In this document: positions 1,597 through 18,146 of the stretch, one piece after another
Layout: each line of letters opens with the position of its first letter
Position numbering within the stretch: the first letter of the stretch is position 1
Origin: Candidatus Fermentimicrarchaeum limneticum
GTDB lineage: Archaea > Micrarchaeota > Micrarchaeia > Burarchaeales > Fermentimicrarchaeaceae
DNA length: 64,000 nucleotides
Reading direction: 5' to 3'
NCBI GenBank assembly: GCA_013426015.1
Contig: CP058998.1
Span: 445,470-509,469, forward strand
Program-made: the position numbers and the translations under genes
The notes under the pieces: generated by a model
Told to the model about the DNA's origin: nothing
Database searches by the model: none
Seen by the model: the letters and a program-made list of their open reading frames with translations, nothing else

Positions 1597-1640
1597 TAGT
1601 CAAATTTTACGTCGTAAAATACGTCTGGCCTCGGACGCTG
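1597..1640 (+). repeat. Double-hairpin dispersed repeat, copy A
   Basis: ATTTTAC-gtc-GTAAAAT followed by CGTCT-ggcctc-GGACG; 35/44 identical to 5777-5820. Confidence 0.7.
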
Positions 1641-1778
1641 TTCAGCAGAACGCGCTCGGCTTGTAGTCTCCGCCGCAGCAGACCCAGTTATTCAGACAGC
1701 ATCGCCACAGTTTAATCCAAAGCTAAAAAATGATTCTAAACTCCGAAAGCAAGGTAAGTGTACTCCATGGCTTTTTTA

Positions 1779-2760: not shown

Positions 2761-3072
2761 GTGACAAAGAAACTCACAATTGACTCAGCGTTCAAGATAG
2801 AGAACATAGTAGCTTCAGCCAATTTGGGAGTGGAGCTTGACCTTTATGTTCTTGCCCAGAAAATCAGGAACATAGAGTATGAGCCAGAGCAGTTTCCAGG
2901 TGCAATACTCAAGCTGAAAGACCCAAAGGCATCTCTTCTGCTCTTCAAGAACGGCAAGGTAATATGCACAGGCTGCAAAAACGAGAGAGAAGTGAAGTAT
3001 GCCTTAGAGCGAGCAATAAAGCTACTGGCTTCCTATGCAAAACCTTTGCCAGTCCCCAAGAAGGAGGGATAG
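2761..3072 (+). CDS. tbp: Single-repeat TATA-binding-protein (TBP) domain protein
   Basis: IENIVASANLGVELDL, EYEPEQFPGAILKLKDPKASLLLFKNGKVICTG = one TBP repeat; in-frame stop at 2725 upstream. Confidence 0.85.
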   Translation: MTKKLTIDSAFKIENIVASANLGVELDLYVLAQKIRNIEYEPEQFPGAILKLKDPKASLLLFKNGKVICTGCKNEREVKYALERAIKLLASYAKPLPVPKKEG

Positions 3073-5776: not shown

Positions 5777-5820
5777 TAGTCCATTTTTACTTCGTAAAAG
5801 TCGTTTTGCCTCAAACGCTG
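5777..5820 (+). repeat. Double-hairpin dispersed repeat, copy B
   Basis: TTTTAC-ttc-GTAAAA and CGTTT-tgcctc-AAACG; directly follows the junction motif at 5757-5776. Confidence 0.7.
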
Positions 5821-5878
5821 ATTCCAAAAAGTTATTCTAGCCGAAAGTATTTTCAATAAAGCCACCGTAACAATTTTC

Positions 5879-7321
5879 ATGAGGTACTGTACAGAATGCG
5901 GGAAAAAGCTTCTCAAACCAAATTTAAAGTACTGCCCTGAATGCGGGGCTGCTCTTTCCAAGGAAACGCCTCCTCCTGTTAGTGCAGAACAGCCACCGGC
6001 TGCGCTTTCAGCCAAAGCTGGAACTGAAAAGCTGGCTGCGGAGGAACCTGCTGCCAGAAGCAGGAAACCGGGATTTCGGCCATTGCGATTTGTTCTTGTT
6101 ATGCTTTTGCTTTTTGGCATAGCGTTCTTAGTTTTGCTTGTGGGTTTACCGATTTTATTTTTCTATCTTAGCGGGGGCTTGCAGGATGGGGGTCAGGATA
6201 GTTGCGCCAATGTGACATGCAGTAACTATTGTAATGGCAATATCCGGTACTATAACGGCTTCTGCGTGGTTGGCCAGTGCCAATATTATCCCGAAGTTTG
6301 CCCCAATGGCTGCAGCAATGACTCGTGCAATTCGCCTAAACCCGTTGAACCTGAATTATCACAAATCTACATCTCCGTGAGTCATGAGAACGAAGATCCG
6401 TATTACGGCAGTTACTGCGACAAGATTAACCCCTATGACCTGAGTGTCCGTGAAGCTGTTTCAGAGGCGATTAAAAAGCATCCTGGGCGTTACAGCGTTG
6501 ACCAGCTTTTTGACATATTCGACTGGGTGAAGGCAAATGTAAGATATCAGAATGTTCCTTTGGGAGGTATTCCTTATCCAGCAGCGGAAACTTTGGTGAC
6601 AAAATCCGGGGATTGCAAGAATCAGGCGGTCTTGGTGACATCTATGATAAGGGCAATAGGAGGTACCGCGAAAGTCGTGGCAGATCCGGGATGCAGTCAC
6701 GCCTATGCAATGGTGTACGCCGGCTCGTCAGAGGCAGAGCTGAGAAATTTGTCACGGGCAATTGCCAGCCATTACGGCTCCAACGCTTCGGTGGATTATT
6801 TTAAGTATAATAACGGTACGGTGAGCTATCTTGTATATAACAACAGCATGTGGATAATCTTCGATACAGCTGCGGGAAATTATCCGGGCACTACACTTAA
6901 GAACTGCTCGGGAAACAGGACGCTCCACATGATTACAAGCTGTTTAGATTGTGTTAATTCATATCCGAATAAGCCCTATACATTCAATGATAAATGTTAC
7001 TCTCAATGCCCTTCGGGGGCGGTTACGGCCAATCAATACGCATGTAAACCCTGTCCGGCAGGTTACCAGAGTTATAATGACCAATGCCTAAAGTGCCCGA
7101 CGGGTCAGATTCTTGGCAACGATGGATTATGCTATCCGACGTGTGGAAACCCCACTACTTATTGTCAATCTGGCTCTCATTGTTATAATAATAAATGTGT
7201 AACATGTCAAGCAGGCTATATTCTGGGTACGGATGGATTATGTTATCAACCGTGTGGAAGTCCTACTACCTATTGTCAATCTGGCTCTTATTGCTCTAAT
7301 GGACGTTGCTACAGGAGCTGA
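5879..7321 (+). CDS. Zn-ribbon/TM/transglutaminase-like surface protein with Cys-rich repeats
   Basis: N-term CTEC..CPEC, TM helix, GDCKNQA/HAY/D triad, C-terminal duplicated ~37-aa Cys-rich repeat (GxDGLCY..CG.PTTYCQSGS.C). Confidence 0.8.
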   Translation: MRYCTECGKKLLKPNLKYCPECGAALSKETPPPVSAEQPPAALSAKAGTEKLAAEEPAARSRKPGFRPLRFVLVMLLLFGIAFLVLLVGLPILFFYLSGGLQDGGQDSCANVTCSNYCNGNIRYYNGFCVVGQCQYYPEVCPNGCSNDSCNSPKPVEPELSQIYISVSHENEDPYYGSYCDKINPYDLSVREAVSEAIKKHPGRYSVDQLFDIFDWVKANVRYQNVPLGGIPYPAAETLVTKSGDCKNQAVLVTSMIRAIGGTAKVVADPGCSHAYAMVYAGSSEAELRNLSRAIASHYGSNASVDYFKYNNGTVSYLVYNNSMWIIFDTAAGNYPGTTLKNCSGNRTLHMITSCLDCVNSYPNKPYTFNDKCYSQCPSGAVTANQYACKPCPAGYQSYNDQCLKCPTGQILGNDGLCYPTCGNPTTYCQSGSHCYNNKCVTCQAGYILGTDGLCYQPCGSPTTYCQSGSYCSNGRCYRS

Positions 7322-7358
7322 TTACGGAAGTAAACCAGATGGAATAGCCAGTTTCTCG

Positions 7359-7398
7359 CAAATTCTAAGTAGTAAAATCGTCATCGCTTCGGACGCTG
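7359..7398 (+). repeat. Double-hairpin dispersed repeat, degenerate copy C
   Basis: 30/40 identical to 1601-1640 (GTAAAAT...TCGGACGCTG). Confidence 0.5.
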
Positions 7399-7480
7399 TA
7401 GACCTTATCGCGTTGATAACCTCAGTAACAGGCTACACACTTTCTACGATTATAATTTAGCTTGTTAGATATTAAACTTT

Positions 7481-15193: not shown

Positions 15194-15238
15194 TTGATGT
15201 TTTCACCGGTATGGATTATACCCGAACTGGATATGCAG
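15194..15238 (+). repeat. 45-bp direct repeat copy 1
   Basis: 41/45 identical to 16071-16115. Confidence 0.85.
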
Positions 15239-16070: not shown

Positions 16071-16115
16071 TTGATGTTTTCACCGATATGGGTTATACCC
16101 GGACTGGAAATGCAG
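16071..16115 (+). repeat. 45-bp direct repeat copy 2
   Basis: TTGATGTTTTCACCGATATGGGTTATACCCGGACTGGAAATGCAG. Confidence 0.85.
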
Positions 16116-16148: not shown

Positions 16149-16180
16149 AGAGGAACCTCGCGGTTCCCTCTACCTTCCCT
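16149..16180. repeat. REP-like hairpin AGAGGAACC-loop-GGTTCCCTCT, copy 1
   Basis: Also at 17569-17593 and 18116-18146; only the loop varies. Confidence 0.85.
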
Positions 16181-16184
16181 GAGA

Positions 16185-16229
16185 TGGACCGGGCGGGATT
16201 CGTATAAGAACCACGTCGATGGTTCTTAT
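16185..16229 (-). repeat. tRNA-Ala 3'-end duplication (18 bp) plus hairpin, att-like copy 1
   Basis: 45 bp identical to 17027-17071; first 18 bp identical to tRNA 17483-17500. Confidence 0.9.
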
Positions 16230-16301
16230 CATCTCCACGTATTCGCACCCCTACCATAAACATCACCTCGTTTTGGTTATAACGAAGCAAAGCAGAGCTT
16301 A

Positions 16302-16934
16302 TCATCGTTTCATAAATAAGAAAAAGAATTCAAATATATGCCGCATTTCGTGAATTAGCTCGTCCGATATTGGACAATCTTCACGTATAAGAATAAGCCA
16401 TTTTTTTCCCTCTTCATCTAATTGTTTTACGAATGCCCTGGCTGATTTATCAAAAGTAATCGATTTTCCATATTCTTCTGTCTCCAAATTGCTAATTTTT
16501 TGCAACTGTTCGCCAATTCTAAAGAAATCATCTTTTGTACAAACAATTGCTTTTATCTTTGGCATTTCGATTAAACCAACATTATACCCCTTATTCTTTA
16601 AATCTGATTTTAGAATTCTCCAAGCCTTTTCGATAGTTGATTTAGAGATAGGGGTAGGTTTTGATGTTAGTTGTATAAGGTTTAGTGGTAGGTTGATGTA
16701 TCCAATCATTTCATCAACATAAGGGGCCAGTATCTCTGGCTTTTCCTTTGAAACGTGCTTCATTACATCGGCGATTGCCCCTTTCTCAACATCAGAACCA
16801 GTTTTCAGAATATCAATCAGCTGCGATGCCAGTTTCTCATCCTTTTTAATGCTGTCTGCCAGAAACTGCACCAATTCCTTTGGCTTTCTTTTGGAGTTCC
16901 TTATCTCCTCACTTAAATTCATCTTCACCACCAA
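16302..16934 (-). CDS. Hypothetical, possibly chimeric (HEAT-like N-term plus HExxH C-term)
   Basis: Helical N-terminal repeat-like region; ELIHEMRH near the C-terminus. Confidence 0.55.
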   Translation of the reverse strand: MVVKMNLSEEIRNSKRKPKELVQFLADSIKKDEKLASQLIDILKTGSDVEKGAIADVMKHVSKEKPEILAPYVDEMIGYINLPLNLIQLTSKPTPISKSTIEKAWRILKSDLKNKGYNVGLIEMPKIKAIVCTKDDFFRIGEQLQKISNLETEEYGKSITFDKSARAFVKQLDEEGKKWLILIREDCPISDELIHEMRHIFEFFFLFMKR

Positions 16935-17026
16935 GAATTAGTTAACATTCGGGAGTATATTAAGATTGCTTTGGTCTTTCCTGATTATATGTAAACAAAA
17001 ACCACTCTCAGACGTAAAGCAAGGAG

Positions 17027-17071
17027 TGGACCGGGCGGGATTCGTATAAGAACCACGTCGATGGTTCTTAT
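17027..17071 (-). repeat. tRNA-Ala 3'-end duplication plus hairpin, att-like copy 2
   Basis: TGGACCGGGCGGGATTCG + T + ATAAGAACCA-cgtcga-TGGTTCTTAT. Confidence 0.9.
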
Positions 17072-17176
17072 GATTTCCTTGGATTCGAACCCCCTTATTC
17101 ATATATACCACCCCAGCATTTGTTTAGGTAAGCAATATTAATATAGTCCTCGATATTAACTACTTTTGGTGGTAAA

Positions 17177-17461
17177 GTGGATAAGAAAAGCAAACCTATA
17201 ACCAAAAAAGATAAAATGAAATTCAATCCCGAACCTGGGTTTATACTGCTGCTGATATTTTTTGTATTTATTGGTATGTTAGTAGAAAAGACAGGCGTAT
17301 CCTTATTCATACCTCTAATTTTTTGGTTATTTGCCCTGATAGTTTACAAACAAGGACGTATATTTGGTATTCACGACAATGAGAAAGCAAGGCGTTGGGC
17401 GGTATATCTCGCCATTGCAGGGGTGTTCTTATTCTTTTGGGAATTTAGAGTTTGTTGTTAA
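17177..17461 (+). CDS. Small 3-TM membrane protein
   Basis: Hydrophobic helices; GGTGG RBS. Confidence 0.6.
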   Translation: MDKKSKPITKKDKMKFNPEPGFILLLIFFVFIGMLVEKTGVSLFIPLIFWLFALIVYKQGRIFGIHDNEKARRWAVYLAIAGVFLFFWEFRVCC

Positions 17462-17482
17462 AGCCAGAGCAATCTTAATAGA

Positions 17483-17567
17483 TGGACCGGGCGGGATTCG
17501 AACCCGCGGCCTCTACCTTTTCCGCGGAAGATGCGAAGGTAGCGATCTACCACTGATCTACCGGCCC
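17483..17567 (-). tRNA. tRNA-Ala(CGC) with 13-nt intron at 37/38 (intron 17519-17531)
   Basis: GGGCCGG/CCGGTCC acceptor with G3:U70, CTACC-TTCGCA-[TCTTCCGCGGAAA]-A-GGTAG, GGTTCGAATCC T-arm. Confidence 0.95.
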
Positions 17568-17568
17568 A

Positions 17569-17593
17569 AGAGGAACCTCTCGGTTCCCTCTAC
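17569..17593. repeat. REP-like hairpin copy 2, abutting the tRNA 5' end
   Basis: AGAGGAACC-tctc-GGTTCCCTCTAC. Confidence 0.85.
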
Positions 17594-18115: not shown

Positions 18116-18146
18116 AGAGGAACCTGCGGTTCCCTCTACCTTCCCT
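18116..18146. repeat. REP-like hairpin copy 3
   Basis: AGAGGAACC-tgc-GGTTCCCTCTACCTTCCCT. Confidence 0.85.

Follow-up and report, generated by a model that had tools for sequence, protein, structure and literature searches.

Integrase-free cassettes behind tRNA-Ala(CGC) of a micrarchaeal genome carry ends common to cassettes at other small-RNA genes

Behind the tRNA-Ala(CGC) gene of Candidatus Fermentimicrarchaeum limneticum the 3' end of the tRNA is found again twice within little more than a kilobase, which raises the question of how the two short units so delimited came to be stacked there. With moderate confidence, we propose that integrase-free cassettes entered the tRNA-Ala 3' end successively by site-specific recombination, through a tyrosine integrase supplied by another element. 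Arrays of this kind show in what form single genes are exchanged by an archaeon whose 1-Mb genome encodes few mobile-element enzymes: as standard-ended packets, stacked behind small-RNA genes and present at different sites in related species. The window, the whole stretch of 64,000 nucleotides analysed here, corresponds to C1:445470-509469 of the archaeal genome G000 (1.20 Mb, 97% complete, two contigs). It was compared with five congeneric genomes, G001 to G005 (G001 and G005 are each 91% complete), and with one metagenome contig, L194.

The tRNA-Ala(CGC) array

The features of the array, in window positions, are as follows.

17483..17567, minus strand: tRNA-Ala(CGC) gene (Rfam, 61.8 bits; identity by anticodon and G3:U70 pair)
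17483-17500, minus strand: duplicated core, the last 17-18 nt of tRNA-Ala (positions 56/57-73)
17464..17480, plus strand: left end of unit 1, a promoter-like motif abutting the tRNA 3' end and pointing at it
17177..17461, plus strand: cargo of unit 1, a 94-aa hydrophobic orphan ORF
17045..17102, minus strand: right-end module of unit 1, with Shine-Dalgarno (SD)-like run and ATG (17102-17100), second T-arm (17093-17080), linker and hairpin (17071-17046)
17027..17044, minus strand: core copy separating unit 1 from unit 2 (sequence repeat and shuffle test)
17006..17018, minus strand: candidate degenerate left-end palindrome of unit 2, a weak match proposed from its likeness to contexts in the genus
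16956..16974, minus strand: promoter-like motif upstream of the unit-2 ORF
16302..16922, minus strand: cargo of unit 2, a 206-aa fusion ORF (homologue searches)
16203..16257, minus strand: right-end module of unit 2, with start codon (16257-16255), second T-arm (16251-16239) and hairpin (16229-16204)
16185..16202, minus strand: distal core copy (sequence repeat and shuffle test)
16149..16178, also 17569-17592 and about 18116-18144: REP-like hairpin repeat

A sequence-only reading of this DNA had reported that the last 18 nt of tRNA-Ala recur at 17027 and 16185, and the repeat was borne out: with up to 2 mismatches allowed, the 18-mer matches at three places (16185, 17027 and 17483) where 0.00 matches are expected, and three matches were not reached in any of 100 shuffles. 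The copies set off unit 1 and unit 2, with periods of 456 bp and 842 bp, in tandem behind the tRNA gene. Read depth and joints were checked on short-read contigs of the probable source run, in which rare variants are lost; depth is 106-114x across both units and 240x on the 45-nt repeat at their right ends, so the duplication is no assembly artefact. The G+C content is about 36% in both units versus 49% genome-wide. The array also exceeds what that reading had described, as it extends past the window to two more Ala cores at C1:443461 and C1:442894, 2-2.6 kb to the left. The tRNA gene contains a 13-nt intron after position 37 (about 17519-17531), and its ARAGORN labels, Lys or Leu, were overruled by the CGC anticodon and the G3:U70 pair. 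Other G000 tRNA genes, with T-loop insertions, were missed or mislabelled by the same program at C1:296.9 kb, 759.3 kb and 778.1 kb.

The cargo of the two units differs, as had been claimed, though the expectation of one small gene per unit fails for unit 2, whose ORF fuses two broken genes. Its first ~80 aa match a helical-repeat family of ~171 aa (up to 73%) and residues ~89-201 (~115 aa) match an unrelated family of 135-180 aa, and none of the 84 other matches spans both halves. The ORF is chimeric and unit 2 has therefore lost internal DNA; judged by its sequence, it is the internal deletion and fusion product of a larger unit. For the 94-aa protein of unit 1, the search for relatives returned only the protein itself among 8 candidates, the best feature score (0.89) being a lead and no convincing relative; weak tblastn matches lie at two other places in G000. 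Neither unit holds recombination or transfer genes by Pfam on both ORFs, integrase tblastn and HMM, or homologue searches, which upholds their description as integrase-free.

Comparison across genomes, suggested by the same reading as a check, showed that the locus is not invariant. Measured from the tRNA, the nearest downstream gene that the genomes share lies 2.3-22.5 kb away in six genomes (22.5 kb in G000, 20.0 in G002, 7.2 in G001, 5.7 in L194, 3.7 in G004 and 2.3 in G003), while the G005 contig stops just past tRNA-Ala. The tRNA gene itself is intact, and congeners lack the G000 units or have other ones in their place. The DNA immediately after the tRNA in G003 and G004 is that found past the C1:442894 core in G000, 20 kb away (90-92% over 185 bp to C1:442726-442910), a clear empty site for the whole island. 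In G002 it is joined to the sequence after the 16185 core, with 5 nt and then, past an indel of the REP-like repeat, an 18-nt identical block, a short homology that suggests an empty site for both units. The L194 locus holds a different cassette of 530 bp with the same hairpin module; from exactly the core onward this cassette is 96% identical over 504 bp to one in the tRNA-Thr array of G001, and the flanking genes that L194 and G001 share are 73-84% identical, a contrast that points to movement of the cassette as a unit.

Among smaller observations at the locus, the REP-like repeat is absent from the G002 place matching 16149-16178. Directly before the 5' end of tRNA-Ala, G000 and G004 have a copy, and G002, G003 and G005 have none. 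In some right modules, variants of this repeat take the place of the hairpin. A 45-nt direct repeat (91%) at window positions 15194-15238 and 16071-16115 resembles what we take to be the C-terminal end of a relic restriction-modification gene. Inside the island, a short ORF at 2761-3072 looks by eye like a TATA-binding protein and has a homologue in the G002 island.

Cassette ends at other tRNA genes and at a guide-RNA gene

The right ends of the two units are identical over 45 of 45 bases, although the cargo behind each is unrelated, and agree at 91% over 67 nt. Direct comparison thus confirmed the earlier statement that each core is fused to the same hairpin with a perfect 10-bp stem (16204-16229 and 17046-17071); even with 5 mismatches allowed, the 1.2-Mb genome has no further copy. 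The degenerate second T-arm noted in each unit was likewise found, exactly 37 nt from the core. A second T-arm, exactly 37 nt and tRNA positions 57-73 follow one another four times in G000: in both units and, with unrelated spacers, at C1:442894 (Ala) and behind tRNA-Arg(GCG). The tRNA-Arg unit, of ~0.57 kb, is missing from G004.

Beyond G000, the hairpin module is joined to an Ala(CGC) end in L194, to a tRNA-Asn end in G004, and to an Ala(GGC)-type end in G001. The Asn unit measures 1.0 kb (it lies on two overlapping contigs and was counted once), and its site is empty in G000; the G001 copy lies within a tRNA-Thr(GGT) array whose site is also empty in G000. One module thus adjoins three different tRNA ends, with identity beginning at position 56/57 each time, and end modules common to different tRNAs make a natural case of target switching. 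Across loci the 9-bp arms of the hairpin are invariant while the 5-8-nt spacer varies, and therefore the hairpin fits a putative protein-binding inverted repeat. Whole-module RNA folding gave no significant z-score, with the exception of one module.

The exact 37-nt pattern occurs in none of 40 relatives. A relaxed form matched in 4 of the 40, and the G002, G007 and G035 cases are real tRNA genes. A GTDB-wide scan, run with no control, yielded 83 T-arm, 37-nt and core stretches, of which the 80 fetched were by eye nearly all real tRNAs with a chance downstream heptamer. Two viral matches to the hairpin have a non-tRNA context and were taken as chance, and two other end patterns had no match in the viral scans.

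At the left ends two elements recur. The first is the promoter-like motif, which had been read as a junction motif of the units. A copy is indeed present in each, but it is not unit-specific: G000 contains 17 copies (up to 3 mismatches), which concentrate in variable regions and for the most part precede a start codon by 20-35 nt, and seven lie in the window against 0.09 expected. The motif is found in 5 of 5 congeners and in 0 of 35 other relatives. It also repeatedly abuts cores, and occupies the same position behind tRNA-Ala in G003, G004 and G005. This dispersed, genus-specific motif is probably a promoter. The second element is a 15-bp palindrome, 7-8 nt past the ends of tRNA-Asn, tRNA-Pro, tRNA-Thr (three anticodons) and tRNA-Glu and past a guide-RNA core. 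By a count made by eye, it follows 10 tRNA-type and 16 guide-RNA-type cores among 39 distinct contexts. Beyond the genus, the left-end pattern matched in 1 of 396 genomes, with no tRNA nearby, and the control gave 2 matches. A palindrome-like site outside any cassette, at G000 C1:253290 upstream of two ftsZ-like genes, is conserved in G004 and G005 and is a possible host binding site for a protein that reads the left end.

The guide-RNA core corresponds to the 3' end of the gene at C1:564161-564233. C, D', C' and D boxes and a terminal stem can be read from its sequence, by which it qualifies as a box C/D guide-RNA gene; the Rfam sR14 match, at 21 bits, is below the cut-off of 38. Over 10 nt the D' guide is complementary to 23S rRNA at C1:775366, and the D guide has no rRNA match. 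We presume the D' target to be the U2552 site of the A-loop. The core has 34 matches in 6 genomes compared with 7 for a reversed control, the highest number being in G001 (11), with one match each in G004 and G005, so that array size is uneven. These cores partition arrays of one- or two-gene units. In G001 the guide-RNA gene is followed by cores spaced 715, 789 and 1706 bp apart, similar arrays are present in G002 and G003, and the cargo common to the arrays stands in different order and at different loci between genomes. Two such places lie in the Ala island.

5785..7444, minus strand: guide-RNA-type cassette, with palindrome (5785-5799), 480-aa ORF (5879-7321, plus strand), core (7387-7399) and right-end motif (to 7444)
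1605..1641, minus strand: guide-RNA-type junction, with core (1629-1641) and palindrome (1605-1619)

The 1.6-kb cassette at 5785-7444 corresponds to the one that opens the guide-RNA array of G003 and to the third one in that of G001; core to core, it is 91% identical to the G003 cassette over 1328 bp and 78% over the first 236 bp.

Source of the recombinase and competing explanations

Matches to PF00589, the tyrosine integrase family, number 8 in G000 (5 over the cut-off) and 3-4 each in G002 to G004, and none was found in G001 or G005. The closest G000 matches are ~45 kb or more from the Ala island, and none is inside it. A search for the hairpin beside integrase genes, which the sequence-only reading had suggested as a check, was negative: at no locus examined does an integrase adjoin the left palindrome, the hairpin module of the Ala type or the ends of guide-RNA type. 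No autonomous element was found that could be the parent of the Ala hairpin or guide-RNA ends, and in six genomes the Ala arrays have none adjacent to them.

Integrase and integrase-free forms do meet elsewhere in the genus. At tRNA-Glu(CTC) of G002 and G004 lies an element of ~4 kb whose ~403-aa tyrosine integrase is encoded beside the tRNA. Integrase-free units of 1-2.7 kb come after it, and several of them have the right end of the integrase element; both forms of one end type therefore exist in the genus. At one tRNA-Glu junction of G002 that right end is joined to a palindrome left end, and tRNA-Leu(CAG) offers a similar picture, an integrase-bearing element and cassettes with common ends.

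Following the proposed route, a cassette would excise as a small circle whose joint would comprise right module, core and left end; the circle would reinsert at the tRNA or at an older core, displacing older units outward. The hairpin, the second T-arm at its fixed distance and the left palindrome would act as protein-binding arms. The units were likely born by internal deletion of larger elements and would stay mobile while both ends survive, and the same process may operate at several tRNA genes and the box C/D guide-RNA gene of the genus. In favour of this route are the empty or differently filled sites of relatives, the cassettes that recur at different loci with homology beginning at the core, and the presence of an enzyme of the expected kind at tRNA-Glu(CTC). 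Contigs of the probable source run contained no joint that skips or circularises either unit and no empty site; rare variants drop out of such contigs. A joint in run X4 that goes back 1581 at the ends of the 480-aa cassette was rejected as a circle, since it rests on 32 nt and fits any standard junction. At tRNA-Ala(GGC), the G003 tRNA has A59 and its distal copy C59, as in the cassette-free G000 and G004 genes, a difference that in this one informative case favours reciprocal exchange over target duplication; the distal copy in G005 is of CGC type and misfits a single clean event. Against the proposal stand the lack of an integrase beside the Ala or guide-RNA ends and the lack of a PF00589 match in G005 and in G001, where guide-RNA cores are most numerous. 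Moreover, the cores joined to one right module (Ala-CGC, Ala-GGC type and Asn) are not all alike: of the 7 bases after position 56, up to 3 differ, so classical tyrosine recombination would need a target switch. Being short and well bounded, the sites lend themselves to in vitro tests of the mechanism with integrases of the genus.

A wider form of this proposal, an integron-like exchange distributed over the genus, in which a trans-acting recombinase uses the 3' ends of many small-RNA genes, a box C/D guide RNA among them, as interchangeable docks and one-gene cassettes hop between sites and species and gain new target ends, we regard as tentative. We hold it rather unlikely that the units are immobile scars, the decayed remains of large integrase elements since excised or deleted, and that they pass between genomes only by homologous recombination or in cis with a neighbour. 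The supports for scars are the fused pair of broken genes in unit 2, the 7 of 11 right modules examined that open with a ribosome-binding-like (SD-like) run and an in-frame ATG, like stumps of deleted genes, and tRNA-Pro(CGG), where G000 has a 6.8-kb integrase element (C1:626.7-633.5 kb) and G004 a 1.1-kb unit with a similar right end; moreover, the part of PMC7563491 available to us defines CIMEs as such decayed elements. Yet, when 267 kb of island DNA was searched with a profile of 11 integrases, no catalytic fragment came to light; the signals there were confined to the C-terminal end of the integrases, the best falling on a cysteine-pair motif of a cargo ORF. Also against scars are the identical right ends behind unrelated cargo, the cassettes that are almost the same in sequence and exactly bounded yet sit at different target genes, and the varying cargo order of the guide-RNA arrays. 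The possibility raised by the sequence-only reading, that the units are deletion relics of integrase-bearing elements, is borne out by half: unit 2 is a deletion and fusion product, but no integrase remnant was found in the islands.

Improbable in our view is a transposase-like or Cas1-like enzyme making staggered cuts ~17 nt apart, by which the apparent att copy would be a target-site duplication and one pair of ends could use any small-RNA gene end. The abutment of one hairpin module to three tRNA ends, with identity from position 56/57, and the fixed place of the left palindrome after cores of both types fit such a scheme. The enzymes searched for do not: Cas1 is absent from G000, Y1 transposases from 5 genomes and large serine recombinases (PF07508) from 29 genomes of this order, DDE families lying outside the search, and the only resolvase in 6 genomes is truncated, with no intact copy. 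The unit ends also lack terminal inverted repeats, the guide-RNA right ends keep a degenerate target homology that reaches past the duplicated part, and the A59/C59 case points to exchange.

We give just as little credence to the right module being what is left of the N-terminal part of a 'suicidal' integrase gene of SSV type, which is split at its own att site, or the 3' half of a donor's tRNA with a T-loop intron: the in-frame starts with SD-like runs, the frame kept by the 37-nt spacer in three unrelated spacer types and a G035 tRNA with a T-loop insertion, the same outline and a first 16 nt common to the C1:442894 module would suit one or the other, but the modules of G001 and G004 break the frame, the loci read have no long ORF that runs on in frame past the tRNA or cores, longer proteins beginning with the stump were not found (a weak test), and the module RNA folds have no common bulge-helix-bulge.

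Relation to known systems and further elements of the genus

Taken by themselves, the two units are ordinary accretion products, and the best class for the successive insertion proposed here is tandem accretion of the CIME or additive-island type, by integrases acting from elsewhere. As the accessible part of PMC7563491 describes them, the CIMEs and microCIMEs of streptococci are integrase-free, att-bounded units stacked at one target, 1.2-13 kb with cargo and 130-220 bp without. The likeness to our units lies in the flanking att-like direct repeats of a target 3' end, the absence of recombination and transfer genes, and the empty sites in relatives. They differ in that, by the same partial account, streptococcal CIMEs lie beside ICEs or IMEs and always farthest from the target (PMC7563491), whereas small units in G000 touch it; the Ala and guide-RNA arrays examined also have no autonomous element or conjugation system, and their ends are common to several target genes.

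The ssrA islands of Dehalococcoides, according to the portion of PMC3146451 at hand, are tandem with RNA-gene 3' ends between them and inserted in mid-T-loop, and a conserved motif immediately precedes the repeat; of 31 islands, 15 lack an integration module and 16 have one with a serine integrase. In contrast to our arrays, these excerpts describe a single target, larger islands and a serine integrase, whose family (PF07508) has no match in the 29 genomes of the order of G000. Repeated tRNA 3' ends also mark variable islands in Methylophilaceae (PMC10872708) and the tycheposon islands of Prochlorococcus (10.1101/2020.12.28.424599); in the sections of these two sources that we could use, additive islands start at 330 bp and newcomers push older elements inward, the targets are tRNAs alone and no conserved non-tRNA end modules are described for small units, which sets them apart. 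Preference for tRNA 3' ends, tandem site use and integrase loss are given in the available text of PMC8371274 for archaeal tyrosine integrases of class II (intact) and class I (split, SSV-type), and tandem use and integrase loss in that of PMC6563490 for thaumarchaeal elements. The targets named in the former are tRNA, protein-coding and intergenic, and the term 'sRNA' does not occur in that text. The present modules differ from the SSV type in a short N-terminal ORF with no C-terminal integrase fragment after the tRNA, and from casposons in the lack of Cas1 in G000 and of an end-to-end inverted repeat at the units.

Integrons comprise IntI, an attI/Pc platform and attC sites, with arrays of mostly one-gene cassettes. 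Mostly one-gene cassettes of variable content and order are common to both systems, but 'integron-like array', the term of the sequence-only reading, does not apply in the strict sense. IntI, attI/Pc and, judged by inspection, attC are absent; no integrase stands beside the arrays; boundaries are duplicated RNA-gene ends at many targets instead of one platform; and cassettes of the genus carry their own promoter-like motif and face either way.

Integrase-free units stacked at RNA-gene ends have thus been described before, and what is particular here are the ends shared across tRNAs and the guide-RNA target. The literature searched, mostly open access and exclusive of supplementary element tables, contained no box C/D guide-RNA gene as integration target and no guide RNA with a provirus or attB. 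No paper on an integrase, tRNA or genomic-island system of Micrarchaeota was found in it either, subscription journals lying largely outside.

Several larger elements were seen in passing. Besides its integrase, the tRNA-Pro(CGG) element of G000 encodes a 989-aa ORF, which by eye resembles a primase-helicase, and a serine recombinase that is truncated; a palindrome-like site overlaps the start of the recombinase. At C1:341001-418977 a provirus-like element of 25,989 bp with an integrase is repeated in tandem, its three copies being exact. A short repeat similar to the anticodon arm of tRNA-Leu(CAA) bounds it, and it is associated with three different tRNA 3' ends stacked head to tail; the triplication could be an assembly effect or mark a multi-att element. 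The second contig, C2 (25.5 kb), has a 300-bp terminal repeat, as expected of a circle, is partly 94-97% identical to the tandem element and has no PF00589 match. Lastly, tRNA-Ala(GGC) is followed in G005 (L151:2893-5190) and G003 (L153:3349-5643) by a 2.3-kb att-flanked unit with a single gene, whose 725-aa product resembles by eye a membrane proton pyrophosphatase.
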